A DNA stretch of 64,000 nt from NCBI GenBank assembly GCA_049519175.1, contig JBEKQZ010000002.1, positions 134,782 through 198,781 of the forward strand, in the 5' to 3' direction. Both the position numbers and the translations under genes were made by a program. Positions 12,545 through 63,155 of the stretch are shown here, in pieces; within the stretch, counting starts at the first letter, position 1; each line of letters starts with the position of its first letter. The notes beneath the pieces are model-generated. The model was not told where the DNA came from. It ran no database searches and worked only from the letters and a program-made list of their open reading frames with translations. Origin of the DNA: Candidatus Levyibacteriota bacterium (GTDB lineage: Bacteria > Patescibacteriota > Microgenomatia > Levybacterales > UBA12049).

Positions 12545-12662
12545 GCGCGGGGAGCATTTTGTCAAGATGATGTCTTCGCTAGAGTCGCTTGCGACCGTAT
12601 CCCGAGTTTCGCAGGGACGCTTGCGTTCGAAGACTCATAGAGATCAGAATGCGACCTAAGCG
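12545..12662. repeat. structured repeat family 1, intergenic copy A
   Basis: About 118 bp. Nearly identical (2 mismatches) to 17175-17291 and homologous to 22698-22830. Contains a nested inverted repeat GTCTTCG...CGAAGAC and an internal GTCGCTTGCGAC hairpin. Confidence 0.8.
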
Positions 12663-12672
12663 CTTATTATTT

Positions 12673-13290
12673 CTATTTCGTATTAAATCTGTTCATGGCT
12701 TTTTCTAAGCCCTCTTCCAAGGCATCCTGCACCGCTTTAACCGATTTCTTGACAATTTCCCGCGCCTTTCCCTTTTCACCTTCCGAAAATTCTCCCAAAA
12801 CATAGTTGTCGATCGGTTTTAACCTCGGTTTTAAAATTTTGAATTTTGCATTGTCGTTGCCGATGCCGATTCTAAAACGCCAAAATTTGTCTGTTCCTAA
12901 AAGTTCGATAATTGACTCAACGCCTTTGTGTCCTGCCGACGCGCCGGCAAAACGTATTTTCATACTACCCAGCGGCAAATCAATTTCGTCATGAATTACC
13001 CAAATATCTGCCGGGGAAATTTTATAAAATTGAGCGATTGAATTGACTGCTAAACCTGAACCATTCATATAAGTTAGCGGTTTTGCTAAAAGCACTTTTT
13101 CCGCCTGACTTTTTTTGGGCTGCCAGTTTATTTCGGCGATTTCTGCTTGAAACTTTTTTTCTTCTTTCCATAAAGCTTGCGAGGAAGATTCAAAATCTTT
13201 GAGGAAAGCGTCAACCACCGTAAATCCCAGATTATGTCTGGTTTTGGCGTGTTTGTCTCCGGGGTTACCAAGTCCAACTATCAATTTCAT
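12673..13290 (-). CDS. pth: peptidyl-tRNA hydrolase
   Basis: 205 aa. MKLIVGLGNPG start and HNLGF motif. Confidence 0.9.
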   Translation of the reverse strand: MKLIVGLGNPGDKHAKTRHNLGFTVVDAFLKDFESSSQALWKEEKKFQAEIAEINWQPKKSQAEKVLLAKPLTYMNGSGLAVNSIAQFYKISPADIWVIHDEIDLPLGSMKIRFAGASAGHKGVESIIELLGTDKFWRFRIGIGNDNAKFKILKPRLKPIDNYVLGEFSEGEKGKAREIVKKSVKAVQDALEEGLEKAMNRFNTK

Positions 13291-15410: not shown

Positions 15411-15797
15411 ATGGGAGTACAGTTGGAAAAATTCCCCATCGTTACGATTACGAATCATGCAGGAGAAGTAACTATAACCGACTTTACTCCAACAGCAGAA
15501 GATCAACTTATTGGCAGATTTTTTGACGGGAAAACCAACATCCCTCCAACGATTGGAACAATATCTCGATCCGGCATCAGATTAACCATTGGAGGAGATC
15601 CTGAAGACACTCAACCAGAAAGTCGACCTGAACCAAAAGCCATAGTCTTTACCAGGAATATAAATGACATTGTTAATGACGAAATTGAAAAAGAACTTCA
15701 AGCGGAAAGAGATACAAAAAGACCAAGAACTAAACCCGACGGGGATTCTACCAAGTTAAGACCTATTGTTTTCCTTGCTGCTGATACATCTCGATAA
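15411..15797 (+). CDS. hypothetical protein (uncertain, overlaps 3' end of ligase gene)
   Basis: 128 aa ORF. Divergent from the upstream gene; 35 nt convergent overlap with the ligase ORF. Confidence 0.25.
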   Translation: MGVQLEKFPIVTITNHAGEVTITDFTPTAEDQLIGRFFDGKTNIPPTIGTISRSGIRLTIGGDPEDTQPESRPEPKAIVFTRNINDIVNDEIEKELQAERDTKRPRTKPDGDSTKLRPIVFLAADTSR

Positions 15798-17577
15798 GCT
15801 CGGTGACTGAAGTGGCGTCTTCGGGTTTTTTGTCTGCATCCCGGAATGAAACTAAGCGCGGGAAACGAAGCGCATAGCCAGGTTCTGTCTCGGTTTTACC
15901 AGCGGTATGAATCGGCGAACGGGTAATTTCATCCGCCAAAACTTCGATGACAATTTTGGGCTCAATCCAAACTGAAGGGATGATATTTGAACTGACTCTG
16001 GCCGGTTTTTGCTCCAAACTGATTTTATCGGCTCTTTTGTGCACTTCCCTCCACTCTTCATCGGTTAAGCCGGTCCCGATTTTACTGACTGACACAAACT
16101 CGTCCTTTTCTTTATCATAAACCCCCACCAATAACGCTCCCGCGCCAAAAGCGGTCCTCTTCCCTTTGCCGCTGATGTATCCCAAAATGACACAATCAAT
16201 TGTGTCGCTTAATTCACCCGATGAGTGCCTTTTGAGCTTAACCCAATTAAAATTTCTGGCTCCCGCTTCATAGGGACTTTCCAATTTTTTGATGACTAAC
16301 CCTTCCAAACCCTTGGAAATTGCGTCTTCCAAAAGTAGCGACAAAGTTTTGGCGTCTCTGACGGTCTGGTTTTTAGTTCTAATTAAGACGTCATCTTCGG
16401 GCAAAACTTCTTTGAGAATTTCCATTCTCTTGGTCAGCGGCAAATCAATTAGAGACTGCCCGTCTTTGTAGAGAATATCGAACACAAAAGCTTTCAGCGG
16501 CAAACTTTTGGCCATTTCCGCAATGCCGTATTTTCTCCTTCTTTTGGTGGTTTCCTGGAAGGGCAAAAACTCTTCCGACTCCGGGTTGTAAGCTAACGCT
16601 TCGGAATCCAAAATTATAGTTTTTGCTTTAATTTGTTTTCTGACCGCTTCCGTTAACTCCGGAAACATCTGTGTCATCTCCTCTAAGTTTCTGGAGAACA
16701 TTCTGACGATATCGCCATTTTTGTGCAACTGAACTCTGAACCCGTCATATTTATACTGTGCGTCAACCACTTTCATTTTTTCGATCACTTTTTCGGGATT
16801 TGGCAAGCGTTCGCAAAGTTCCGAACGTACCGGATAGCCAACTCTTAACTCTAATTTCTGAACCGCAGCTAAACCACCGTCCCACAAAGTTTTGGCAATT
16901 AAACCTAAATCCGAAGTCCGGTTATATGCTCCCTCCAATAATTTCCGCTGAAATTTATCGCCAAGTTTTGCCGTTGCTAAGGCGTCTAAAATCGTCGGGT
17001 CACCAATTCCCAAACGCGTGTTACCTAAAGGAATTCGCACGAGGTGTTTGGCCGAAATCGGGTCGAGTTGTTTGAGAAGGTCTGATAATAAAATTTGTCT
17101 TTTCTCCACGGTCCCGTTCCCCTTCGTGTTGGCAATTTCCAAAAGAATATTAACCACTTCGCCAACCGTTACGTCGCGGGGAGCATTTTGTCGAGATGAT
17201 GTCTTCGCTAGAGTCGCTTGCGACCGTATCCCGAGTTTCGCAGGGACGCTTGCGTTCGAAGACTCATCGAGATCAGAATGCGACCTAAGCGACTCAGCAA
17301 CTAATCCCATGTCGCCTAATTTATTGAAATCCTTGATTACTGCTTCTTTATTCGAACCGTAAGCCAGCGCTAACGCTTCCGCCACGGTTTTCTCTGCCAT
17401 ACCGATTTCGATTGGCGCAAAAAACGGCGCTAATCTTCCCTGGATTAAATAAACAATCTTTTCAATTTCACTCGCCGGAGTTTTTTTGAATAGCTCCGCC
17501 AGAATCTCAATTAAAGCCAATCTTGAAGAAGTCCCTTCCAGTTTCTCAAAATACTCTGTCAACTCACTAAATTTCAT
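15763..17577 (-). CDS. ATP-dependent DNA ligase (archaeal/eukaryotic Lig1-like)
   Basis: 604 aa. Adenylation motif I KYDGFR and an OB-fold C-terminus. Carries an in-frame copy of repeat family 1 in the N-terminal DNA-binding domain. Confidence 0.85.
   Translation of the reverse strand: MKFSELTEYFEKLEGTSSRLALIEILAELFKKTPASEIEKIVYLIQGRLAPFFAPIEIGMAEKTVAEALALAYGSNKEAVIKDFNKLGDMGLVAESLRSHSDLDESSNASVPAKLGIRSQATLAKTSSRQNAPRDVTVGEVVNILLEIANTKGNGTVEKRQILLSDLLKQLDPISAKHLVRIPLGNTRLGIGDPTILDALATAKLGDKFQRKLLEGAYNRTSDLGLIAKTLWDGGLAAVQKLELRVGYPVRSELCERLPNPEKVIEKMKVVDAQYKYDGFRVQLHKNGDIVRMFSRNLEEMTQMFPELTEAVRKQIKAKTIILDSEALAYNPESEEFLPFQETTKRRRKYGIAEMAKSLPLKAFVFDILYKDGQSLIDLPLTKRMEILKEVLPEDDVLIRTKNQTVRDAKTLSLLLEDAISKGLEGLVIKKLESPYEAGARNFNWVKLKRHSSGELSDTIDCVILGYISGKGKRTAFGAGALLVGVYDKEKDEFVSVSKIGTGLTDEEWREVHKRADKISLEQKPARVSSNIIPSVWIEPKIVIEVLADEITRSPIHTAGKTETEPGYALRFPRLVSFRDADKKPEDATSVTELIEMYQQQGKQ
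17175..17291. repeat. structured repeat family 1, copy B, in-frame inside DNA ligase ORF
   Basis: Near-identical to 12545-12662. The ligase ORF reads through it as ...LVAESLRSHSDLDESSNASVPAKLGIRSQATLAKTSSRQNAPRDVT... Confidence 0.8.
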
Positions 17578-22832: not shown

Positions 22833-24008
22833 TTACTTATTTTTTACTTTTGAACTTACAAAGTCTTGAATTTCTTTTTTAAAACGCTCTTTGGAAAACT
22901 TTTTCGCTTGCTCAATGCAATCTTTCGAGTTGAATTTTGTGTTTTCGAACTTTTTGACTGCTTCGATTAAACCGTTTACCGAATAGTCGTTGAACAAAAC
23001 TCCGGTTTTGCCGTTCACGACTGTTTCTTTATATCCGCCGCCGTTAAAAGCAATCACTGGCGTCCCACAAAACATCGCTTCAACCGGCGTAATCCCAAAA
23101 TCTTCGTCCTGCGATAAAGCCAAAAAGCCCCTTGCTCCTTCGTAGAGCTTTGCTAATTCTTCATCACTGACTTGTCCCAAAAATTCCACTTTGCCCTGAG
23201 ATTTATTCACTAATTTGTCGTGCTCAAAATAATATCCGGCCGGCGACCCAGCGATTTTTAATTTGAATCCAGACTTTAAGGCTGCGTCAACCGCTAACTC
23301 CAAGCCTTTGGCGCCGACAATTCTAGAAACAATAAAATAATAAGGGGTGGCACCGGAGGAAGGGCTCCCGACAGCGCGCGGATCAGTGAGTCGTGAATGA
23401 GCACTGGCGGGAGGGAAACCGGTGACAGGACCCCGATTGAATCCAACCGGCGGATAAATTACCGTTGCATCACGTCGATAAAACTTTTTGATTCTGGCGG
23501 CGACCTCTTTGGAATTGGCAATAAAATAGTCAACTTTTTGCGCCTGTTTAAAATCATAAAGCCGTATGCAATGCCCGACTATTAAAGCGTAAACCTTAAC
23601 CGGCCAGTACTTTTGGAAATTGACCGAAGTTGTATAACCATACAACCACCTTGGCGGCGTATGGCAATAACAAATTTCTGTGAATTTATCATTTTCCTTT
23701 TTAAAACCTTTGGCAATATACCAGCTGGACGAGGAAATGACTAAATCGTATTTTGCCAAATTAAAGCTACCCCAAATCAGCGGGGTTAAAAAGCGTAAAG
23801 GGCTATAAAGTTTGTTTTTAAAAAAGGGTATATATTGTACCCAAGACGTAATGATTTTCCTATCTTTAAAGTGCTTATAAGCTTGGGATTTCTTGGCACA
23901 AAAGGCAGTGTAAATCGGCGCGTCTGGAAAAATCTCGGTTAGAGTTTCCAACACCCGTTCTGCCCCGCCGTACTCTTTAATATAATCATGGACTAATGCT
24001 ACTTTCAT
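22833..24008 (-). CDS. glycosyltransferase family 4 (GT-B fold)
   Basis: 391 aa. C-terminal EDFGITPVEAMFCGTPVIA motif of GT4. Carries an in-frame copy of repeat family 2. Confidence 0.8.
   Translation of the reverse strand: MKVALVHDYIKEYGGAERVLETLTEIFPDAPIYTAFCAKKSQAYKHFKDRKIITSWVQYIPFFKNKLYSPLRFLTPLIWGSFNLAKYDLVISSSSWYIAKGFKKENDKFTEICYCHTPPRWLYGYTTSVNFQKYWPVKVYALIVGHCIRLYDFKQAQKVDYFIANSKEVAARIKKFYRRDATVIYPPVGFNRGPVTGFPPASAHSRLTDPRAVGSPSSGATPYYFIVSRIVGAKGLELAVDAALKSGFKLKIAGSPAGYYFEHDKLVNKSQGKVEFLGQVSDEELAKLYEGARGFLALSQDEDFGITPVEAMFCGTPVIAFNGGGYKETVVNGKTGVLFNDYSVNGLIEAVKKFENTKFNSKDCIEQAKKFSKERFKKEIQDFVSSKVKNK
23344..23434. repeat. structured repeat family 2, copy in-frame inside glycosyltransferase ORF
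   Basis: About 90 bp, GGGGTGGCACCGG...GACAGGACCCC. Homologous to 39967-40056 and to the shortened 29764-29816. Translated in the ORF as ...GFPPASAHSRLTDPRAVGSPSSGATP... Confidence 0.8.
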
Positions 24009-28563: not shown

Positions 28564-31121
<2,558 letters not shown>

Positions 31122-32717: not shown

Positions 32718-33112
32718 TATGTCAACAAGAATCTAATAATGACTATCTTTAAGCAATTTTATTGACTATTAGCTTTGATTTTGCTATTATGTTTTTACGC
32801 GCGGGGTAGTGTACAGTGCACATGAGGCTCAAATGGGCCATTTTGATAGTAATATTAAGATAGTACTCAGCTATATCGGTGAAACCCCATCTATTTATTA
32901 TTTAGGGCAATACCGAGGGAAGATCCAATAATTTATTGGGGACCCGTAGAGACTACACGCTGAGGTCGCCACTGGCGACAAGATATAGTCCGACACTCTG
33001 GGTAACCGGAGAAACAGAAAGCATAATCTCATAGGCTAGGCGCAACTCCTAGCCCCGCAACAAATCCCTACAACTTGACTTATAGTTCTTCTAGAGCTAC
33101 AATTTCCCTGCT

Positions 33113-39414: not shown

Positions 39415-39957
39415 CTATTTCTTTAACCAAACAGTTTCTTTTTGTTTTTCCTTGTAATTTATATATCTTGCAAGAGTAAAAAGCAAGTCGGAAAGCCGGT
39501 TTAAGTAAACGAGAATTTCCGACAATACGGCTTCTTTTTCGGCCAGCATGACCGTTCTTCTTTCGGCCCGTCTGGCGACGGTTCTGGCGTAGTGTAAAAG
39601 CGAACCGGTTTTTCCACCGGGCAAAATGAAGTTTTTCAGTTTTGGCAGTTTTTGGGTTAAGACATCGATTTCTTTTTCAAACTCCACGACCCGTTTCTTA
39701 AGTTTTTCTCCCAAAACCTTATATTCTTTCTCCCCCGGTCCGGCTAGGCTTGCTCCAATTTCAAATAAGTCACTTTGGATTGCCAAAATTTCTTGCTTGA
39801 TTTTCTTATCTTTAATTCGTGAAACCACCACACCCAAAAAACTATTTAATTCGTCCAAATTCCCATAGGCCTCCACCCGGGAGCTTCCTTTTGAAACAGT
39901 TTTCCCGGTATGAAGAGCCGTTTTCCCTTTATCCCCAAATCTTGTATAAATTGGCAT
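39415..39957 (-). CDS. ATP:cob(I)alamin adenosyltransferase, PduO-type
   Basis: About 180 aa from MPIYTRFGDKGKT, the canonical PduO/MMAB N-terminus. The track ORF start at 40041 is probably an artefactual extension into the repeat. Confidence 0.8.
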   Translation of the reverse strand: MPIYTRFGDKGKTALHTGKTVSKGSSRVEAYGNLDELNSFLGVVVSRIKDKKIKQEILAIQSDLFEIGASLAGPGEKEYKVLGEKLKKRVVEFEKEIDVLTQKLPKLKNFILPGGKTGSLLHYARTVARRAERRTVMLAEKEAVLSEILVYLNRLSDLLFTLARYINYKEKQKETVWLKK

Positions 39958-39966
39958 AATCTTAAA

Positions 39967-40056
39967 GGGGTGGCACGGGTAGAAGGGCCCCCGACAGCGC
40001 GCAGTCAGTGAATCGTGAACGAGCACTGGCGGGAGGGACACCCGGGACAGGACCCC
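39967..40056. repeat. structured repeat family 2, intergenic copy
   Basis: GGGGTGGCACGGGTAGAAGGGCCCCCGACAGCGCGCAGTCAGTGAATCGTGAACGAGCACTGGCGGGAGGGACACCCGGGACAGGACCCC. About 88% identical to 23344-23434. Contains the palindromic GACAGCGCGCAGTC core. Confidence 0.8.
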
Positions 40057-40065
40057 TGAATAAAT

Positions 40066-42477
40066 TTAACACTCGGAATAACCGCAGGCGTAACATTTTT
40101 TGCAGCCTTCTTCGTAAGCAAAGCTGGCCGCTCCGCATTCGGGGCAGAGATCATAAAGACTAGTAGCGGTTTCATCGGTTGACAGTGCGCCCCCCGGCGT
40201 TTGCAAAGATAGTTGTTCGATTTTGACAATTTCTTCTTTAGGAGCCGCATCCGCGGCAATCGGCAAGGAATGTCCATTGAGATGCGCGTTGGCAGCGTTG
40301 CCATTATGCACACTTGGATTTTTATCCTCCACCACTCCGTTTACTTTAAATTCAAAATGTTTTGACAACACTTTTGCAATCGCGTCCGGCAGCGAACGGA
40401 CTTTGTTTTCGCCAAACCCGACACTTCTGGCTCCGCCAATGCCGATTAGTTGCGCCACCACTTGTCTGATTCTCTCCCGCGGCGCCAACACGCCATTGAT
40501 TCTTAAGTTAAGCGAGATCATCCTGCCTAATGCGTCGGCCATTGCCGCCACATCCGAACCTGATTTTCCGACGGTAATGAAGACTTCAAACGGCTGCCTA
40601 TTTTCGTCATGATTAATAGTGATGTAGGTTTTGCCAACCGGAGTATCGGTCCCGTAAGTTACTCCTTCCACCATACTTGGTCTTGGCAACACCGGAAGTG
40701 ATGTCTGCACCTGCGGAATAGCGACTTTTTCCTCTTTTTTCTCTTCAATTCTTTCCAAAACGCCTACCCGGCTGCCATCCCGCATGTAAGTAATCCCTTT
40801 TAATCCCATGTCATAAGCTAACATATATAGTCTTTCGACATCTTGGACGGTGTGGCTTTTGGGCGCATTGACCGTTTTGGAAATCGAAGCGTCAATATAT
40901 TCTTGGGCCACCGCTTGCACTTTAACGTGCTCTTCCGGCGTTAAATCATTAGCCGAAGCAAAATAATCCGGTTTTTTGGCGTCGGGATTCTCTTTTTTCC
41001 ACTGCTCAAACAGCGGATGATACATTTTATGCTCACCCAATCGGTCGCGGCGGATAAACTCAAACTCATAAACCGGTTCTACTCCTGATGACACTCCGGT
41101 TAAAAGCGACGTTGAACCCGTTGGCGCAATGGTCAGAAGCACTGCGTTTCTAATCCCCTGTTTAGCGATTTTAGCCCTGATTTCTTTGGGCAAACGTTTG
41201 ATATGAAAACCTTTGAGATATTTTTCCCGGTTGTATTTGGGGAAAGAACCTTTTTCTTTAGCAATGTCGGAAGAGGAGATGTAAGCGTTATCGCGCAAGG
41301 TTTTAAAAATTTTATCAATTACTTTTAGCGATTCCTCACTGCCGTATCTAACTTCCATTTTAATTAAGGCGTCCGCCAGCCCCAAAATCCCCAAACCTTG
41401 TCTGCGAATATCTTTAGCCACTTTTTCGTTTTCTTTATAAAAATAGTAAGTGTCGTCAATAACGTCGTCTAAAAATCGCACTGCCACCTGGACGTCTTTG
41501 GCAAAGTTATCATAGTCAAACTGTTTGTTTTTAACGTAAGCCGCCAGATTGATGGCGCCCAAATTACACACGGCCCAGGCGGATAACGGTTGTTCGCCGC
41601 AAGGATTGGTCGCGATTAGTCTTTCAAAATAATAAGTGTTACTCCTTTTATTACTTCTGTCCAAAAAGTGCAGTCCCGGCTCGGCCGAGCGCCAGGCGGC
41701 GGTGCAAATTAAATCCCACAGATATTTAGCCTTAATGGTTTTTAAAACTTTAACTTTGCCGCCGGTTTTTTTCCAGGCTTCTAAATCGCCTGTCCATTTT
41801 TTGTCGTATTTCGGATCGTCCAAATCAGGATAAACTAAATCCCAATCGTCATTTTTTTTGACCGCTTCCATAAAAGCATCGGATAAACAGACCGACAGAT
41901 TGGCCCCGTTTATTTTATTTAAGTCCTGTTTAACGGTGATAAATTCCTCAATGTCGGGGTGCCAATCCCAAAGCATTAACATCAAAGCGCCCCGTCTTGA
42001 ACCGCCCTGCTGCACAATGTCTTTAGTCGCCAAGGAATAGAGCTCTGCCCAGTTGATTGGACCAGAAGAAAAACCGTTGACTTTTTTCACTCTGGAGCCG
42101 CGCGGCCGAAGTGATGAAAGATTGAGTCCGACTCCGCCGCCGTGCGCCATAATCTCAATCATTTGCGTCAGATTGGCCATGATGCCACCTCTGGAATCCG
42201 GCGGATTTGGAATCACAAAACAATTGTAGTAGGTCACGTCAAAACCGGTTCCGGCGCCGGCCAAAATTCTTCCGCCTGGCAAAAACTTAAAGTCCGCCAT
42301 TAGCTCGTTGAATTTTTTCTCCCATTTCTGGCGGTTTTTCGGCTTTTCGACACTGGCAATTCCTTTAGCCACCCTCTTCCACATTTCGTCCGGAGTTTTC
42401 TCGATGGGCTTTCCCACCTTATCTTTTAAGGAGTATCTATCTAAAAATACTTTTTCTCTGATTCCATCCAGTTTCAT
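40066..42477 (-). CDS. nrdJ: ribonucleoside-diphosphate/triphosphate reductase, class II (adenosylcobalamin-dependent)
   Basis: 803 aa. Active-site NPCGEQPL and a C-terminal Cys-rich zinc ribbon. No NrdB partner. Flanked by nrdR and the PduO-type adenosyltransferase. Confidence 0.75.
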   Translation of the reverse strand: MKLDGIREKVFLDRYSLKDKVGKPIEKTPDEMWKRVAKGIASVEKPKNRQKWEKKFNELMADFKFLPGGRILAGAGTGFDVTYYNCFVIPNPPDSRGGIMANLTQMIEIMAHGGGVGLNLSSLRPRGSRVKKVNGFSSGPINWAELYSLATKDIVQQGGSRRGALMLMLWDWHPDIEEFITVKQDLNKINGANLSVCLSDAFMEAVKKNDDWDLVYPDLDDPKYDKKWTGDLEAWKKTGGKVKVLKTIKAKYLWDLICTAAWRSAEPGLHFLDRSNKRSNTYYFERLIATNPCGEQPLSAWAVCNLGAINLAAYVKNKQFDYDNFAKDVQVAVRFLDDVIDDTYYFYKENEKVAKDIRRQGLGILGLADALIKMEVRYGSEESLKVIDKIFKTLRDNAYISSSDIAKEKGSFPKYNREKYLKGFHIKRLPKEIRAKIAKQGIRNAVLLTIAPTGSTSLLTGVSSGVEPVYEFEFIRRDRLGEHKMYHPLFEQWKKENPDAKKPDYFASANDLTPEEHVKVQAVAQEYIDASISKTVNAPKSHTVQDVERLYMLAYDMGLKGITYMRDGSRVGVLERIEEKKEEKVAIPQVQTSLPVLPRPSMVEGVTYGTDTPVGKTYITINHDENRQPFEVFITVGKSGSDVAAMADALGRMISLNLRINGVLAPRERIRQVVAQLIGIGGARSVGFGENKVRSLPDAIAKVLSKHFEFKVNGVVEDKNPSVHNGNAANAHLNGHSLPIAADAAPKEEIVKIEQLSLQTPGGALSTDETATSLYDLCPECGAASFAYEEGCKKCYACGYSEC

Positions 42478-48198: not shown

Positions 48199-50385
48199 AT
48201 GAAGCTAAATTTACCGAAAACTTTGCAAAAAAGGTTGAACTTAAAAGAATTGACGCATAAGAAAGTTATCGCAATTTGTGTTCTTTTGCTGTTTGCTTTT
48301 TCTTTTTATTATTTTATTTTGCGTGACTTACCTTTGCCGACAAAGCTCAGTAGTTCCTCCAATCCCCAATCGACGCTAATTTATGACCGTAACGGCAAAC
48401 TGTTATACAACATCTATGACAAGAAGAATCAAACTTTTGTCCCGTTATCCAGCATCCCTAAATACATGCAGGAAGCCACCATTGCGATTGAAGATAAAAG
48501 CTTTTATCAACACGGGGCAATTGACCTGCGCGGCATTGCCCGTGCCGCTGTTTCGATTGCTTTGCATCAGCAAATTCAGGGCGGTTCAACGCTAACCCAA
48601 CAATTGGTAAAAAATAGCCTTTTAACCCAACAGCAAACCATTTTGCGAAAAATTAAGGAAGTAATTCTGGCTTTTGCCACCGAAGTTGTTTATTCCAAAG
48701 GTCAAATCTTAGAAATGTATTTAAATCAAACTCCCTATGGCGGAACTTCCTACGGCGTTGAGGCGGCCAGCGAAACTTATTTTGGCAAACATGCTAAAGA
48801 TTTGGATTTAGCCCAGTCCGCACTTTTAGCCGGACTGCCGCAGGCGCCGACAGAATATTCTCCCTTTGGCGCTCACCCGGAAGAAGGCAAAGACCGCCAA
48901 GTTGAGGTTTTACAAGCAATGGAAGACCAAGGCTATATTACTAAAGACCAGGAGCAAAAAGCCGAAAAAGAGGACTTGCAATATAAAAAGTTTACCAACG
49001 ATATCCAAGCCCCGCATTTTGTTTTATACATTAAAGATTTATTAATTGCCCAGTATGGGCAGAATTTGGTTGAAGAAGGCGGCTTAAAAGTTACTACCAG
49101 CCTGGATTTGGATATTCAAAACTATGCCCAACAAGCTGTCGCCGACGAAGTTAACAAATTGCCGGTCTATTATCACGTCACCAACGGCGCCGCTTTGGTC
49201 ACCGATCCCGCTACCGGCGAAATTTTGGCGATGGTCGGCAGTAAAGATTATTTCGATAACACTATTGACGGCAATGTCAACATTACTACCGCTTTACGGC
49301 AACCCGGCTCATCCATTAAACCAATCAATTACGCCGTCGGACTTTTGAACGGTTACAACGCCGCCACCACTTTTATCGACCAACCGATTTGCTTCCCCAA
49401 CCAAGGCGGACAAAACTATTGCCCGGTCGATTACGACGGAAAATGGCATGGCTTGGTGGAAATGCGTTACGCTTTGGGCAATTCGTTTAATATCCCGGCG
49501 GTCAAAATGCTGGAGCTAAATGGTGTTAACGCAATGGTCGCAACCGCTTCGGCAATGGGCATTACCAGTTTTACCGATCCGCAGAAATACGGTTTGTCTT
49601 TAACGCTTGGGGGAGCCGAAGTCAAAATGGTCGATATGGCCACCGCTTTCGGCGTTTTTGCAAATTCGGGCTACAGGATTGATTTACATCCGATTTTAAA
49701 AGTAACCGACAAAACTGGCAAAGTGCTGGAACAATACACGCCGCCCTTAAGCCCTATTTTTGGCCAGAAAGTGCTACCGGACGGAGTCGCCTTTATCATT
49801 TCCGATATTTTGGCCGATAATAACGCCAGGCTTGCGGAATTTGGCGACAACTCGGAGCTAAAAATCCCCGGCCAAACCGTTTCGGTTAAAACCGGCACGA
49901 CCAACGACTTCCGCGACAACTGGACCATCGGTTATACTCCCTCTGTTTTGGTCGCCGCCTGGGTCGGCAACGACGACAACTCACAAATGAGCGGACTGGT
50001 TTCCGGTATTACCGGCGCGGCGCCGATTTGGAACGACATTATGTCGCACTTACTAAAAGACCGCACGCCGGAACCGATGTCTAGACCACCCGACATTATC
50101 CAAAAGTCATTCTGTTCGGACACGGGACTACTCCCGGGAGGAGCTAATCCCTGCCCAACCCGCTTTGAATATATTCTTAAAGGCACCGAGAGCTCAAGAG
50201 GGCAAGTTACGACTGGTGATACTCAAGTGGACAAAACGACTCAAGATTTACCCGCCAAAGGGCAAACCGATAACCTGGAAACCAAAACGGAAACCGTCTA
50301 TACCGATCCGACCGGCGATAAGTTTTGCATGACTTGCCCGCATCCAGAACTAATGCCTAGTCCAACGCCGACTCCTGCTCCTTAA
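48199..50385 (+). CDS. class A penicillin-binding protein (PBP1A; transglycosylase + transpeptidase)
   Basis: 728 aa. N-terminal TM, GT51 motifs (EDKSFYQHGAID, RKIKE), and transpeptidase SSIKP (SxxK) and KTGT. Confidence 0.85.
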   Translation: MKLNLPKTLQKRLNLKELTHKKVIAICVLLLFAFSFYYFILRDLPLPTKLSSSSNPQSTLIYDRNGKLLYNIYDKKNQTFVPLSSIPKYMQEATIAIEDKSFYQHGAIDLRGIARAAVSIALHQQIQGGSTLTQQLVKNSLLTQQQTILRKIKEVILAFATEVVYSKGQILEMYLNQTPYGGTSYGVEAASETYFGKHAKDLDLAQSALLAGLPQAPTEYSPFGAHPEEGKDRQVEVLQAMEDQGYITKDQEQKAEKEDLQYKKFTNDIQAPHFVLYIKDLLIAQYGQNLVEEGGLKVTTSLDLDIQNYAQQAVADEVNKLPVYYHVTNGAALVTDPATGEILAMVGSKDYFDNTIDGNVNITTALRQPGSSIKPINYAVGLLNGYNAATTFIDQPICFPNQGGQNYCPVDYDGKWHGLVEMRYALGNSFNIPAVKMLELNGVNAMVATASAMGITSFTDPQKYGLSLTLGGAEVKMVDMATAFGVFANSGYRIDLHPILKVTDKTGKVLEQYTPPLSPIFGQKVLPDGVAFIISDILADNNARLAEFGDNSELKIPGQTVSVKTGTTNDFRDNWTIGYTPSVLVAAWVGNDDNSQMSGLVSGITGAAPIWNDIMSHLLKDRTPEPMSRPPDIIQKSFCSDTGLLPGGANPCPTRFEYILKGTESSRGQVTTGDTQVDKTTQDLPAKGQTDNLETKTETVYTDPTGDKFCMTCPHPELMPSPTPTPAP

Positions 50386-50445: not shown

Positions 50446-52761
50446 ATGAAAATCTTGATTTCTTTGATTAACGCTATTATTTTGCTTTTAACCGCTATCG
50501 GCGATGCTGTGTTTTTCTGTCTAAAACTTGTCTTAAGAATAATTTTCACCCTACTCAAATTTATTCTTCGTTTGGTTGCCGCCATTTTCAGATTTGTCTT
50601 TAAAATAATCGGCATAAGCTTATCACGTAGCCAGGCGGCCAAAAGAAATATCAGTAATCAAATTAAATTGGCGCGCTTTAAGCTTCTACTGTCTGTCAAA
50701 AGACTAAAGCGCCAGTTTCGACCAAAGAAAAAAGCCAAACCGAGCAAGAAAAAAGTGGTCAAAGAAGCGGTCATTACCTTCTTCCCTGCGCCAAAACATT
50801 ATCGCCTGAAACTAAAATATTTTCTGGTTGGCTTTTTGTTCTGCGTTATTTTTGTGCTGATTCCCTTTGCGATGTATTCATTCTTAATGAGCCTACCCAA
50901 CCCTAAGCTTTTAACCGAAAGAGCCTTTCCGCAAACTACCAAAATTTTTGACCGCAATGGCACGCTGTTATACCAAATTTACGCCAATGAAAACCGCACT
51001 CTGGTGCCGTTAAACTCTATTCCGAAAAATTTGATTAACGCCACCATTGCGATTGAAGATAAAGATTTTTATACCAATCCGGGCTTTGACATTACCGGCA
51101 TTTTGCGGGCGGCTGTCGCCGATTTTTCCGGCCAGCCAATTCAGGGCGGCTCCAGCATTACCCAACAATTGATAAAATCAACGCTTTTGACTCCCGAAGT
51201 AAGTATTACCCGCAAGATTAAAGAGATTGTGCTGGCTTTTTGGGCGGAAAGAATTTACAGCAAAAACCAGATTTTGGAAATGTATTTTAATCAAGTTCCT
51301 TACGGCGGCACCGCTTGGGGGATTGAAGCGGCCTGTGAAACTTATTTTGGCAAAAATGTTAAAGATTTGGATTTGGCGCAAAGTGCTTTTTTGGCCGGCA
51401 TGCCCCAAGCTCCCACCACTTATTCTCCCTACGGTAACAACCCAACTCTTTGGAAACAACGTCAAAAAGAAGTGCTCGACAAAATGTTCCAGCTTGGTTA
51501 TATTTCGCAAAAACAGGATAATCAAGCTCTAAAAGAAACTCTGACTTTTCAGCCGCCGCAAATTCCCATTTACGCCCCGCATTTTGTAATGTATGTTAAA
51601 GATTTGCTGGTGCAAAGATATGGACTGGCCATGGTCGAAAAAGGCGGTTTGAATGTTACCACCAGTCTGGATTTAAACCTGCAGCAGGACGTTCAGCAAA
51701 TTGTCAGCGACGAAGTTAACAATGACGCTTATTTAAACCTGACTAATGGCGCTGCTTTGGTCACCAACCCTAGTAACGGTGACATTTTGGCGATGGTTGG
51801 CAGCGCAAACTACGATAACGCCAACGGCGGTAATGTTAATTTGACGACCGCCTTAAGACAGCCGGGCTCTTCAATCAAAGTGGTTACTTATGCCGCCGCT
51901 TTATCGGACGGTTTTACCGCCGCCAGCATTTTGGATGATTCCCCAATCACCTACAATATTCCCGGCTCAGCCCCTTATTCACCGGTCAATTATGATGGCA
52001 AATTTCACGGCAAAGTCCCTTTAAGGTTTGCTTTTGCTAATTCGTTTAATGTCCCGGCGGTTAAAACCCTGCAAAAAATCGGCATTCCGGCGATGGTTAG
52101 TATGGCCAAGCAAATGGGTATCACCACTTGGGGAGATCCAAGCCAATACGGACTGTCTTTAACTCTTGGTGCCGCCGAAGTCAAAATGACCGATATGGCC
52201 ACTGCTTATGGCACCGTTGCCAACCTTGGCAAAAAAGTGGATTTGGATCCGATTTTAAAAGTTTCCAATTATGACGGCAGTGTTTCTTACCAAAAACAAG
52301 CAGAGTTACCAAATCTAGTGCTTGACCCAGGCGTCGCCTATATTATTTCCAATATCTTGGCCGATAATAACGCGCGCTCTTTGGAATTTGGCTTAAATTC
52401 TCCCCTAAATATTCCTAATCACACTGTTTCGGTTAAAACCGGCACTTCGGATAATAAACGGGATAACTGGACGATCGGCTTTACGCCGCAGGATTTAGTG
52501 GCTGTTTGGGTTGGCAATAACGATAACTCACCGATGAGTCAAACGCTGGCTTCCGGCATTACCGGCGCGGCGCCAATCTGGAATAAAATTATGACTTTGC
52601 TTTTGGGCAATGCTTCCAACGCTCCGGAGCCGATACCCGACGATGTTGTGATGAAAAAATGTCAGGGAAGAAATGAATATTTTATTACAGGAACCGAAAA
52701 TACGTCCGATTGTAATTTTATCGCCACCCCCAGCGCAACGATGATACCACAAGCTAACTAA
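50446..52761 (+). CDS. class A penicillin-binding protein (second PBP1A paralog)
   Basis: 771 aa. Long basic N-terminal extension plus TM. GT51 motifs (EDKDFYTNPGFD), SSIKV and KTGTS. Confidence 0.85.
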   Translation: MKILISLINAIILLLTAIGDAVFFCLKLVLRIIFTLLKFILRLVAAIFRFVFKIIGISLSRSQAAKRNISNQIKLARFKLLLSVKRLKRQFRPKKKAKPSKKKVVKEAVITFFPAPKHYRLKLKYFLVGFLFCVIFVLIPFAMYSFLMSLPNPKLLTERAFPQTTKIFDRNGTLLYQIYANENRTLVPLNSIPKNLINATIAIEDKDFYTNPGFDITGILRAAVADFSGQPIQGGSSITQQLIKSTLLTPEVSITRKIKEIVLAFWAERIYSKNQILEMYFNQVPYGGTAWGIEAACETYFGKNVKDLDLAQSAFLAGMPQAPTTYSPYGNNPTLWKQRQKEVLDKMFQLGYISQKQDNQALKETLTFQPPQIPIYAPHFVMYVKDLLVQRYGLAMVEKGGLNVTTSLDLNLQQDVQQIVSDEVNNDAYLNLTNGAALVTNPSNGDILAMVGSANYDNANGGNVNLTTALRQPGSSIKVVTYAAALSDGFTAASILDDSPITYNIPGSAPYSPVNYDGKFHGKVPLRFAFANSFNVPAVKTLQKIGIPAMVSMAKQMGITTWGDPSQYGLSLTLGAAEVKMTDMATAYGTVANLGKKVDLDPILKVSNYDGSVSYQKQAELPNLVLDPGVAYIISNILADNNARSLEFGLNSPLNIPNHTVSVKTGTSDNKRDNWTIGFTPQDLVAVWVGNNDNSPMSQTLASGITGAAPIWNKIMTLLLGNASNAPEPIPDDVVMKKCQGRNEYFITGTENTSDCNFIATPSATMIPQAN

Positions 52762-59584: not shown

Positions 59585-59940
59585 GGGGATGCAATTGCAT
59601 CGACAGGATTCGCACTTTAAAAACTGCAAGCCGGCCATGACTAAAGCCGTAAAACTAGTCAAAAATTAAATGCTAGAAGCAATTCTGCATTTCAACCAAA
59701 TTACGCATTCGCTTAATTTGAATTGATGTTCACTAAGTCTTTTCTCAATGGGACTTTTTGAGCAAAAACACAGTTGAGAAATTAATAAGGAAGTTGATTA
59801 GTTCCTTATCGAATTTATAATCTCGGTGATATTTATTCCCTTCTATTGGAAAAGAATATCGCGACTTTTAAAAGTAGAATAAGCTTGTAGAAGTTATTAA
59901 AATGTTTTCTTGGACTCGAGTTCATTGCTCGACATCTCCA
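59585..59940 (+). ncRNA. ssrA: tmRNA (transfer-messenger RNA)
   Basis: Immediately downstream of smpB. The 5' GGGGATG pairs with the 3' CATCTCC acceptor, then discriminator A. T-arm TCGAG-TTCATTG-CTCGA. Internal reading frame (59672-59716) ...ARSNSAFQPNYAFA-TAA resembles degradation tags (..YALAA). Confidence 0.75.
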
Positions 59941-61441
59941 CACTACCTTTTTTTGAGGCTGAAACCTCATTGATTAGCTTGATAGGATAAGCTAATCCAG
60001 CGGTTCCAAACCCATTTTTATAGTCGTACCTCAATTGATCCTCAAAATACATAAAAAGTATCGTCCTTTTGTCATTGTATTCATCGCTTTTCCACATGGA
60101 CATAGGGTCTTTTAACGTGTTTAAAACTTTATCTGATGCGGTTCCAAATTCTTCATTAGTATATTTTCGTTTGTTTAAATTCTCATCGCCTAGTTTCTTT
60201 TTCGATCTTAAATCTTTTATCTTCTCTTCGTAGGTCGCTATTAAATCTTCGTCCTTTGTTTTACTTATTCTCACAAGATAAGACTGAATGGCTATGTCTG
60301 CCTCCTCAGCCTCTGCTGCAATTCTGTCTCGCCATGCGGTATAGTTATCAAGCCTAATTCCCCATTGCTCTTTTAATACATCCTTTGTTAAATCAACCGT
60401 GTCGGCTGCTGGCTTAACTCTGATTAACAGTTCTTCAAATTTTGCCTCAAACTCTTTTTTGCCCGTCGTCTTCCAGTTATAGATACAACCTTTTGTCCTA
60501 CAGAAATAGTGAGGGTATCGTGTGCCTTTTCTTCCCGTACACCAACTTGCTGTCATAGGCTTGGTGCAAGCATCGCAAAGTACGTGCGGACGAAGCGGAA
60601 AAGTATCGGCATAATCTCTTCGTTTCCATGGCTTTGTACGCTCTTGTACACGCTTCTGAACTAGGTTATACGTCTCAAGCGACAGGAAACCCTCATGCCT
60701 TGCTTTCATGAAAGGAATATCCCATTTTTTGTATTCGATATAGCCTGCGTATAACGGCTCCTGCAGTATTCTTTGCGTTGTGCTCATAGATGGTCTGTTA
60801 GGAAGTCCTTTTGCTTTGTATTCTGCGTGTAAAAAACGCATTACCTCTTCTTGCGTAATGAGCAACCCGTCTCTATATTTCTCGATTGCTATCTTATAAA
60901 TAGAAGCATACGGCTCCCTCGGAGTAAGAATTTTGCCGTGGATAGGATCTTTTTTATTTATCATGCCAAGTGGTGGCATAAAAGGCCAGTAACCTTTCTC
61001 AAGTCTTGCTTTCATTTTTTGAATTACCTGCCTTCGATTACTTTTCCTCTGATATTGATTGCTAACAGCGATCATCAACTCTGCCATTTCGCTTTCATCA
61101 CTATCATCGAAGTTAAAATTGAGACATTCCCGTTTTACTCCTCTTGATTGAAACTCTGCTGTTAACTGAATATGTACTTTTACGTCCCTTGCAAAACGAG
61201 ACAAATCATCAAAGATAACTACGTAGTTTTCATGAGAGTGATCATCTATGTAACTAAGTAAGGCGTGCATGGCCGGCCTTTCAAAAAGACTTCCGGATAC
61301 AGCTTCATCAGGGAATACCTTTACAACTTCATAATCTTTGTTTTTGGCATACATTCGACATCGTTGTTCTTGTGATCCCAAACCGTTTCCCTCGTCAACT
61401 TGACGCTGTGATGAAACCCGACAATAAATTAGTGCTTTCAT
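59897..61441 (-). CDS. large serine recombinase (site-specific integrase)
   Basis: 514 aa. Resolvase catalytic domain YCRVSSQRQ...GLGSQE, recombinase domain and Cys-rich zinc ribbon. C-terminal 44 nt overlap the 3' end of ssrA. Confidence 0.85.
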   Translation of the reverse strand: MKALIYCRVSSQRQVDEGNGLGSQEQRCRMYAKNKDYEVVKVFPDEAVSGSLFERPAMHALLSYIDDHSHENYVVIFDDLSRFARDVKVHIQLTAEFQSRGVKRECLNFNFDDSDESEMAELMIAVSNQYQRKSNRRQVIQKMKARLEKGYWPFMPPLGMINKKDPIHGKILTPREPYASIYKIAIEKYRDGLLITQEEVMRFLHAEYKAKGLPNRPSMSTTQRILQEPLYAGYIEYKKWDIPFMKARHEGFLSLETYNLVQKRVQERTKPWKRRDYADTFPLRPHVLCDACTKPMTASWCTGRKGTRYPHYFCRTKGCIYNWKTTGKKEFEAKFEELLIRVKPAADTVDLTKDVLKEQWGIRLDNYTAWRDRIAAEAEEADIAIQSYLVRISKTKDEDLIATYEEKIKDLRSKKKLGDENLNKRKYTNEEFGTASDKVLNTLKDPMSMWKSDEYNDKRTILFMYFEDQLRYDYKNGFGTAGLAYPIKLINEVSASKKGSVEMSSNELESKKTF

Positions 61442-62895: not shown

Positions 62896-63155
62896 AAAGC
62901 CCTCCGCCAGCGAAGCCTTTCGACTCCTACCGCCCTTTCGGACGATAACTTTAGAGGTGCTCTGACGAAGAGCTTAATACCTCTAAAGTTTTTTAGCCAT
63001 GCTCACATTGCTGCAAGTTTAGGCAATTAACGCTAGTATAGCACACCAAAATTTATAGTAAATTCACCTCTCATAACATATAATTAGACCGTGGTGCTAA
63101 TGAAAAACATTCTTATCCTAGAAGACAATCTTATTGTTTTGTCTAAATATTTGGT

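Follow-up and report, generated by a model that had tools for sequence, protein, structure and literature searches.

The gene for a GT4 glycosyltransferase (22833..24008, minus strand) in a 64,000-nucleotide stretch of a Candidatus Levyibacteriota genome (contig JBEKQZ010000002.1, positions 134,782 to 198,781; the whole stretch is called the window in the following) carries a GC-rich segment at 23344-23434. With a probability of about 0.72, we consider this segment to be a copy of a non-autonomous selfish mobile hairpin repeat that is tolerated in proteins as a disordered loop. The corresponding family is best described as a large, phylum-spanning family of in-frame palindromic repeats of the candidate phyla radiation (CPR), which resembles the palindromic elements of Rickettsia. 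It would multiply within CPR genomes and, since these genomes are almost entirely coding, most insertions would land in genes, where only frame-keeping, stop-free copies in permissive surface loops or domain linkers would survive. The surviving copies would be translated as disordered loops rich in Gly, Pro, Ser and Ala, in the present case within the interdomain linker of GT4, and old copies would decay or lose parts by deletion.

The GT4 insert and its empty sites

The segment in the GT4 gene (copy A; 91 nt, 68% G+C compared to a window background of approximately 41%) lies exactly where a sequence-only reading of this DNA had placed a GC-rich element, and the open reading frame (ORF) continues through it without a stop codon (...GFNRGPVTGFPPASAHSRLTDPRAVGSPSSGATPYYF...). 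Copy A encodes residues 192-222 of GT4 (RGPVTGFPPASAHSRLTDPRAVGSPSSGATP), and the peptide across the insert junctions reads, for example, ...NRGPVTGFPPASA.... The sequence-only reading had estimated that the element adds about 30 residues. This agrees with the 31 residues encoded, but the old linker was partly replaced or shortened, so that the net gain over orthologues without the insert is approximately 22 residues and the change is not a clean addition of 90 bp. Pfam assigns Glyco_transf_4 to residues 13-188 and Glycos_transf_1 to residues 221-370, which places the insert in the linker between the domains. In the AlphaFold model of the protein (mean pLDDT 76.5), residues 191-220 have a pLDDT below 50 and no secondary structure. 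The insert is therefore best seen as a predicted disordered linker between two Rossmann domains.

Among 120 GT4 orthologues, the ancestral linker comprises 12 residues (SLPKxQNVKKGD), and this linker without insert is present in the closest orthologues (P0005, P0016, P0020 and others), which are 82-86% identical. The sequence-only reading had named orthologues sharing the segment as conserved protein sequence as the observation that would speak against a repeat. Some orthologues indeed possess the element at the same site, namely P0002, P0003 and P0064 as well as a distant clade (P0052, P0054, P0056, P0057, P0071, P0080, P0097 and P0100). However, their distribution is patchy, with at least four separate clusters in a GT4 tree built without the linker, and there are decayed inserts (P0054, P0057, P0071, P0079) as well as a footprint allele (P0006, locus L122) of ancestral linker length, which kept only the first ~15 nt of the element and reads SLGRGPIGKKGD. 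The conserved feature across the GT4 inserts is the nucleotide hairpin and not a protein motif.

The same GT4 site also holds two unrelated inserts. The first, E2 (..GAEVDTKIFSL...ENFVS..), is an AT-richer sequence that is itself a palindrome; it is found in the linker of P0023 (L124:10500-10800) and in P0011, P0013, P0024, P0035, P0042 and P0060. The second, E3 (FIWDDRKLKVEGRTLKMED...), occurs in P0083, P0094 and P0118. Truncated remnants are present in P0019 and P0111. Since the site holds the element, E2, E3 and decayed alleles, the GT4 linker is a hot spot for hairpin insertions and deletions. Moreover, the flank of the window's GT4 insert (GFN-R) is closer to that of the distant clade than to that of the nearest relative with the element (E1; SLG-R), which suggests that GT4 alleles might also have been exchanged by recombination.

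A covariance model of the family finds exactly three copies in the window, all of them on the minus strand: copy A (96.7 bits, E 8e-23), copy B (39967-40056, 90 nt, 87.7 bits) and copy C (29763-29819, 56.3 bits). As annotated features, copies A and B occupy 23343..23435 and 39966..40057, respectively. Copy B had been described before as a roughly 88% identical intergenic copy ahead of the PduO gene, and this was confirmed, as copies A and B align end to end (about 91/90 nt) with one 1-nt indel and approximately 88-89% identity. Copy C, a short form, was overlooked by the sequence-only reading and came to light by repeat finding, so that the window contains three copies of the element instead of two. 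It measures 56 nt and lacks the central or apical ~36 nt. The TAG stop codon of murD (29817..31121, minus strand) overlaps the first G of copy C, and the ATG of tgt (28564..29754, minus strand) follows 8-9 nt beyond it. In two syntenic relatives without a copy at this place, murD and tgt are separated by 3 nt (L123) or share an ATGA overlap (L124), and therefore copy C is an insertion with visible empty sites. The related Levybacterium L123 possesses no copy at all in a syntenic stretch of 21 kb, and both its GT4 linker and its murD/tgt junction are empty.

Copy B lies 9 nt past the stop codon (40066) of the gene for ribonucleotide reductase (RNR; ORF 40066..42477, minus strand) and 9 nt ahead of the true start codon of the gene for a PduO-type cob(I)alamin adenosyltransferase (39415..39957, minus strand). 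The mechanically called ORF 39415..40041 starts inside copy B. The Pfam domain Cob_adeno_trans begins at residue 31 of this ORF, and the ATG at 39957 corresponds to the canonical conserved start MPIYTRFGDKGKT. The N-terminal extension of 28 residues is therefore copy B read in another frame, as the sequence-only reading had suspected.

A conserved hairpin that keeps the reading frame

The family was collected by scanning species-representative genomes with a 19-base pattern (GGGTCCTGNCNNNNNTNTCCCTCCCG), which yielded at least 115 stretches, and all counts given below for 101 parsed copies come from these at least 115 listed matches. The matches listed belong to Levybacteria, Roizmanbacteria, Curtissbacteria, WWE3, Saccharibacteria/Nanosyncoccus and unclassified Patescibacteria. 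They also include metagenome-assembled genomes (MAGs) recorded under the label 'uncultured Gammaproteobacteria' and one 'Nanoarchaeia' MAG, whereas one match in Streptomyces is an obvious chance match. The contigs labelled as uncultured Gammaproteobacteria bear the same nested repeat families as Microgenomates, and many of them look like CPR. The contig L037 (DATBWR010000004.1), labelled 'Candidatus Nanoarchaeia archaeon' and noted alongside L081, carries an intact copy but encodes a bacterial RecO. It is therefore a bacterial contig, which was probably mis-binned or mislabelled, and a presence of the element in archaea was dropped from consideration. [quoted passage not shown] Rfam likewise contains no family for the element, as judged for the window at the gathering threshold and for 23250-23530 at E ≤ 10.

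The element is a GC-rich imperfect hairpin of 55-170 nt that consists of P1 (GGG/CCC), a 3-nt bulge, a covarying Y:Y juxtaposition, P2, C-rich internal loops, P3, P4 and an apex. On the C-rich strand, which is the minus strand of the window, the 5' side has the order N-GGGUCCUG-Y1-C, P2, UUUCC, CUCCCG (P3), C-CAGUGC (P4), and the 3' side the order GCGCUG-U-C, GGGAG, CCCUUCC, P2', G-Y2-CACCC-N'. P2 comprises 5-6 nt of free sequence, of which only the pairing is kept. In copy A, the 5' conserved half (23401..23434, minus strand) is made up of GGGGUCCUG-U(Y1)-C, the P2 arm ACCGG, the UUUCC loop, the P3 arm CUCCCG and the P4 arm CAGUGC. The 3' conserved half (23344..23377, minus strand) contains the P4 arm GCGCUG, the P3 arm CGGGAG, the CCCUUCC loop, the P2 arm CCGGU and G-C(Y2)-CACCCC. 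Between them lies the variable apical part (23378..23400, minus strand), which copy C lacks and which in other genomes can extend to ~100 nt and contain nested GC hairpins; across the family it ranges from 0 to more than 100 nt.

The pairing is strongly supported by the comparison of 56 distinct copies, in which 89.7% of the cells are paired (76.2% in shuffles) and 187 double-sided changes occur (56.5 in shuffles). The covariation score amounts to 0.339 compared to 0.100 in shuffles, none of 500 shuffles reached this value, slid controls did not exceed 0.096, and each P2 pair is represented by three to five pair types. Within the helix, Y1 lies opposite Y2, as U:C in 54 copies and as C:U in 45, only two of the 101 copies having another combination.

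At least three other small GC-rich hairpin families are nested in the apical region or at helix junctions of the element, for example CTCGCCCCGCGAAGCCCAAAGGGCGAAGCGGGG, TTTTGGCGAGGCTCGCCTTCGGCGGCCCG and CCTTCGATAAACTCAGGACAAGC...GAGCGAAGTCGAAGG (loci L051, L064 and L095; L062, L070, L077 and L082; L014, L112 and L118). In translation they give rise to the motifs FGEARLRRP, FAKASAGKP and SINSGQA, which recur in many CPR proteins.

If a copy is counted as embedded when it is spanned by an ORF with at least 60 open codons on both sides, 58 of the 101 copies are embedded in frame, 36 of them in sense orientation (C-rich strand coding) and 22 in antisense orientation. The remaining 43 lie between genes, at the ends of genes or close to the end of a contig, and no gene broken by a copy was found among the 101. 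The proposal that in-frame tolerance is a general feature of this genome thus turned out to be far more widely applicable than originally thought. The hosts comprise IleRS (two copies), Obg (three), TopA, TsaD, PriA, transketolase, PBP, ComEC and membrane glycosyltransferases. In IleRS (L010 and the Saccharibacteria orthologues P0241-P0310), two linker sites are insertion hot spots, which hold the element in antisense orientation, other inserts (RVTAAEGDPRR..GEDSSRQDP) and internally deleted remnants.

A single frame, xGP[VA]xxFPPASA...RAVGSPSSxxT[PR], is used by all 36 sense copies, and the core length is 2 mod 3 in 33 of them. The other two sense frames are free of stop codons in 54 and 79 of the 101 copies, respectively. 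A protein module with its own function, spread between genes as a conserved peptide (GPVxxFPPASA...RAVGSPSS), would account for this uniform frame and for a peptide that is recognisable across hosts. However, 43 of the 101 copies are not embedded, and the 22 antisense copies use two frames that encode unrelated Gly-rich peptides. Changes accumulate mainly at paired positions, where they compensate each other as nucleotides, a disordered structure is predicted for the segment, and the frame shifts within older copies. We therefore consider a spreading protein module to be highly improbable. The use of a single frame can be understood as the outcome of selection on random insertions, of which one frame per strand would yield a harmless disordered peptide, and this would also rule out a specific peptide function.

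The hairpin might also act at the RNA level, be it as an mRNA stabiliser, a processing site, a terminator or a pause at a domain boundary, or it might be removed or skipped like an intron or a ribosomal bypass. Copy A indeed has a stable fold on the minus strand, the mRNA-sense strand of GT4 (minimum free energy -38.7 kcal/mol, z -3.9). Copies B and C fit exactly between one gene's stop codon and the start codon of the following gene, and the sequence behind copy C is UUUUUGUUUU, a U-rich tail that only this one of the two possesses. GC-rich hairpins that are bypassed by ribosomes are known from yeast mitochondria, where mobile GC clusters ('byps') spread, in a similar way to the CPR element, in an AT-rich compact genome, coding regions included. 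However, byps are skipped by the ribosome and do not need to keep the frame, whereas the embedded CPR copies are all in frame and stop-free, the sense ones even in a single frame, which would be needless if the segment were removed. In addition, the 22 antisense copies among the 58 embedded ones give rise to mRNAs with the complementary fold and purine-rich loops, and there is no Rfam match even at E ≤ 10. Overall, a role at the RNA level is very unlikely. A terminator was rejected, since a simple scan for a GC hairpin with a U run calls neither copy B nor copy C. A self-cleaving ribozyme, an SRP-like RNA and an intron were rejected as well, since no model matches, mRNAs contain the element in either orientation and none of the embedded copies breaks the frame.

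Obg of the Curtissbacteria locus L062 (P0121-P0123) contains three copies of the element. In the variant P0122, the part of the G domain that lies between copies 2 and 3 is missing, and P0123 diverges after copy 3. P0122 reflects either recombination between copies or an assembly collapse. Its resemblance to a collapse between two copies, together with the metagenomic origin of the assemblies, is what could be put forward in favour of chance similarity or an assembly artefact. However, the same GT4 allele is present on independent ENA, JGI and NCBI contigs, the family occurs in hundreds of independent assemblies, and for the 47-nt core pattern shuffles give an expectation of 0 chance matches. 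Chance or artefact is thus refuted for practical purposes.

Polarity, flanks and mode of spread

Several observations concern the mobility of the element. One Roizmanbacteria MAG carries at least 11 copies at unrelated sites, and seven cores of 88-90 nt are 92-100% identical to each other. When the model was applied to 315 kb of loci selected on other grounds, it detected three copies; each of them lies at the TsaD linker, and two have decayed and change frame internally. Intact copies at orthologous sites are found in TopA (L012/L108) and TsaD (L058/L174), although the host proteins are only 60-70% identical. These copies have quite different, yet still paired, P2 and P1 extensions, and their P2 and apical sequences are typical of the other copies of their own genome (L108 resembles L117). 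We read them as the result of re-insertion or gene conversion.

The C-rich strand of the element lies on the strand with G>C, that is the leading strand, in 90 of the 101 loci (34/36 sense-embedded, 18/22 antisense-embedded and 38/43 other copies). In 20 of the 22 loci of the antisense class, the ORFs next to the copy lie on the opposite strand, so that this polarity is not an effect of gene direction. At third codon positions of the host genes, 32 of 36 sense hosts have a positive GC skew (GC3 skew) and 19 of 22 antisense hosts a negative one, so that 51 of 58 are consistent. Taken together with the pattern of the antisense neighbours, this means that the orientation is set by the replication strand, with GC skew as proxy. 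The window fits in, as its plus strand has a negative skew throughout and the C-rich strand of all three copies is the minus strand.

Direct target-site duplications (TSDs) are not above chance, as a direct flank repeat of at least 3 nt was found in five copies (1.6 expected, shuffle maximum 7). In contrast, the first flanking nucleotides are complementary across the element in 92% of the copies, and inverted flanks of at least 6 nt are present in 34 of 100 copies, where 3.6 are expected and the maximum in 1000 shuffles is 9. Nothing is conserved in the flanks beyond the first complementary pair. In the Roizmanbacteria MAG, the outer stem differs from one near-identical core to the next, and the inner layers form a hierarchy of shared sequences (GAC, TGAC/GTGAC, GGTGAC). 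At the TsaD site, an outer stem of the AAAATTTT type is common to all four orthologous copies. The TsaD linker is approximately 40 residues longer than in the shortest relatives, whereas the core encodes only 28 residues, and therefore both arms look as if they had been inserted. The hot-spot sites are also seen in relatives of IleRS, Obg and TsaD, which are too distant for a base-exact empty site. In one possible scenario, excision of the hairpin takes along a few nucleotides of the donor on one side and is followed by filling in.

The polarity, the single sense frame, the Y:Y mismatch and the variable inverted flanks point to a mobilisation of the hairpin as single strand. The element would move, or become fixed, while folded as a single strand at the replication fork, possibly in the manner of IS200/IS605 or REP (repetitive extragenic palindromic) elements and by an enzyme encoded elsewhere. 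Such a fork-coupled mobilisation of single-stranded DNA, which would explain both the replication-strand orientation and the lack of a direct target duplication, is the probable mode of spread.

The same polarity would be expected if the hairpin were a host-useful, replication-polar cis element acting on single-stranded DNA, for instance a site of lagging-strand priming or restart, or a signal for recombination, segregation or DNA uptake. It would then be kept in place by selection, with the in-frame position as the price of scarce intergenic space. An orientation that follows the replication strand in approximately 89% of the copies, whatever the gene direction, agrees well with such a role, and so do the conservation of the core over several CPR phyla, the intact but differently compensated copies at the orthologous TopA and TsaD sites and the non-Watson-Crick Y:Y covariation in 99 of 101 copies. 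However, the close syntenic relative has none of the window's copies, the copy number varies widely between genomes, near-identical copies within one genome indicate bursts, and decayed or partly deleted copies are common. Moreover, no host function is needed for this polarity, since it also results from a mechanistic bias of insertion such as that of IS200/IS605 (PMC5027513). We consider a host-useful cis element to be unlikely.

Some points weigh against our view of a selfish mobile hairpin. The 19-base collection pattern is strict, so that the conservation of the 5' half is partly due to ascertainment, and the direction of replication was read from GC skew only as a proxy. Translation of the inserts is inferred from ORF continuity only, and the harm caused by the other frames explains the use of a single frame only loosely. 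The TopA and TsaD copies could instead mean that selection keeps the hairpin where it is, which would imply a function. The selfish-hairpin view also leaves the origin of the variable outer stems unexplained. No transposase or other mobilising gene was found within the fetched loci, beyond which none was looked for, and none of the ~120 loci contains an autonomous copy, meaning a longer version in which an ORF separates the two halves. Finally, viral contigs gave 0 matches, for which reason a phage origin was rejected. Two further candidates were discarded: four loci with an unmatched 5' half turned out to be truncations, an internally deleted mini-copy or nested insertions and not an autonomous parent, and an all-against-all clustering of 1152 ORFs, meant to reveal a recurrent neighbour gene as mobiliser, returned only shared host genes and synteny.

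In a more far-reaching version, the family would be a new CPR-specific single-strand hairpin transposon or a domesticated replication-polar DNA signal. It would make no direct TSD, obtain a new inverted outer stem with each hop, yield a harmless disordered loop in one frame per strand and have remodelled a large share of essential CPR proteins (aminoacyl-tRNA synthetases, Obg, TopA, TsaD), its mobiliser being an undescribed hairpin-specific nuclease or recombinase. We put this version forward tentatively and regard it as rather doubtful in its entirety.

Related elements and meaning for CPR genomes

Rickettsia palindromic elements (RPEs) insert in frame in genes (PMC10969869), and the CPR family shares with them the short palindromic repeats, the reduced host genome and the in-frame position in unrelated housekeeping genes with a tolerated peptide (Ogata et al. 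2000; PMC10969869). Both are without a transposase of their own. As expected for elements of this kind, the CPR hairpin is a dispersed multi-copy palindrome with a large in-frame fraction (58/101) and a conserved peptide (36/36 sense copies). However, its hosts are CPR bacteria and not Rickettsia, and its core differs, so that, judged by host phylum and core, we place the two in the same kind but not in the same family. RPEs are confined to one genus, whereas the CPR family spans several phyla and has a smaller core and a variable apical part. To our knowledge, neither replication-strand polarity nor a single sense frame nor variable inverted flanks have been reported for RPEs.

IS200/IS605 elements move as single strands on the lagging-strand template and have an orientation bias likewise, and REP elements are believed to owe their spread to related Y1 enzymes (PMC5027513; PMC6006769). 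Like REP/REPIN-RAYT (TnpA-REP) systems and IS200/IS605, the CPR element combines hairpins suited to recognition as single-stranded DNA with the lack of a direct target duplication and a lagging-strand-template orientation (PMC6006769, PMC5027513). A bias of the IS200/IS605 type is found in 90 of 101 copies by local GC skew and in 51 of 58 by host GC3 skew. In contrast to REPs, which are 20-40 nt long, extragenic and flank a RAYT gene, the CPR element measures 55-170 nt and is mostly intragenic. By length and placement it is thus no REP of the kind found as 20-40-nt extragenic palindromes around tnpA-REP, RAYT genes not having been searched genome-wide. IS200/IS605 ends consist of two different subterminal hairpins with a fixed 4-5-nt target, whereas the CPR element is one long hairpin in whose flanks no conserved target was seen. 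No Y1 gene was seen in the fetched loci, to which the search was confined.

Integron attC sites are likewise imperfect hairpins with a conserved structure (extrahelical bases, unpaired spacer, variable terminal structure), of which one strand is used and whose orientation is related to replication (PMC5371416). However, attC sites delimit gene cassettes in arrays beside an integrase and are poorly conserved in sequence, whereas the CPR repeats are dispersed, highly conserved in sequence and located inside ORFs. Bacterial MITEs (Correia, ERIC, RUP, BOX and others) resemble the element in being small, non-autonomous, structured, multi-copy and sometimes intragenic (PMC10969869). They differ from it by terminal inverted repeats that match a parent IS and by direct TSDs, neither of which is seen in the CPR element, which is one hairpin.

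The window contains another repeat family, for which an in-gene copy had been claimed by the sequence-only reading, and this claim holds. The two copies of 117 nt are 98% identical; that at 12546-12662 is intergenic after pth (12673..13290), and that at 17175-17291 is in frame in the ORF of an ATP-dependent DNA ligase (15763..17577; peptide ..SHSDLDESSNASVPAKLGIRSQATLAKTSSRQNAPRD..). This ligase (604 residues) has no intein and carries the repeat of this family instead, whereas related Levybacteria DNA ligases (L003:9224-12082 and L005:9241-12087; 952 and 948 residues) contain an intein with a LAGLIDADG domain. In addition, Rfam assigns a short group I intron match to 32820-33012 (plus strand; 193 nt, 56.2 bits, E 1.4e-11), a LOOT RNA to 62912-63025 (minus strand; 81 bits) and a tmRNA to 59585-59943 (plus strand; 97.8 bits). 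The regions 48363-50043 and 50928-52593 are tandem diverged paralogues with 70-85% nucleotide identity over ~1.7 kb and a spacing of ~2565 nt.

A large share of bacterial diversity belongs to the CPR, whose proteins abound in insertions that lack an explanation. The hairpin family, together with at least three to four others that are nested in it or occupy the same hot spots, explains many of these as DNA parasites read as disordered loops and not as lineage-specific protein features. This is of relevance for annotation, where false N-terminal extensions such as that of PduO arise, and it also bears on protein alignments, phylogenies and assembly, as illustrated by recombination or collapse in Obg. 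Moreover, the insertions represent a natural experiment on which protein sites tolerate 30-50 additional residues, and the combination of strict replication-strand polarity, inverted flanks and a single frame offers a handle on the mechanism by which the family is mobilised.

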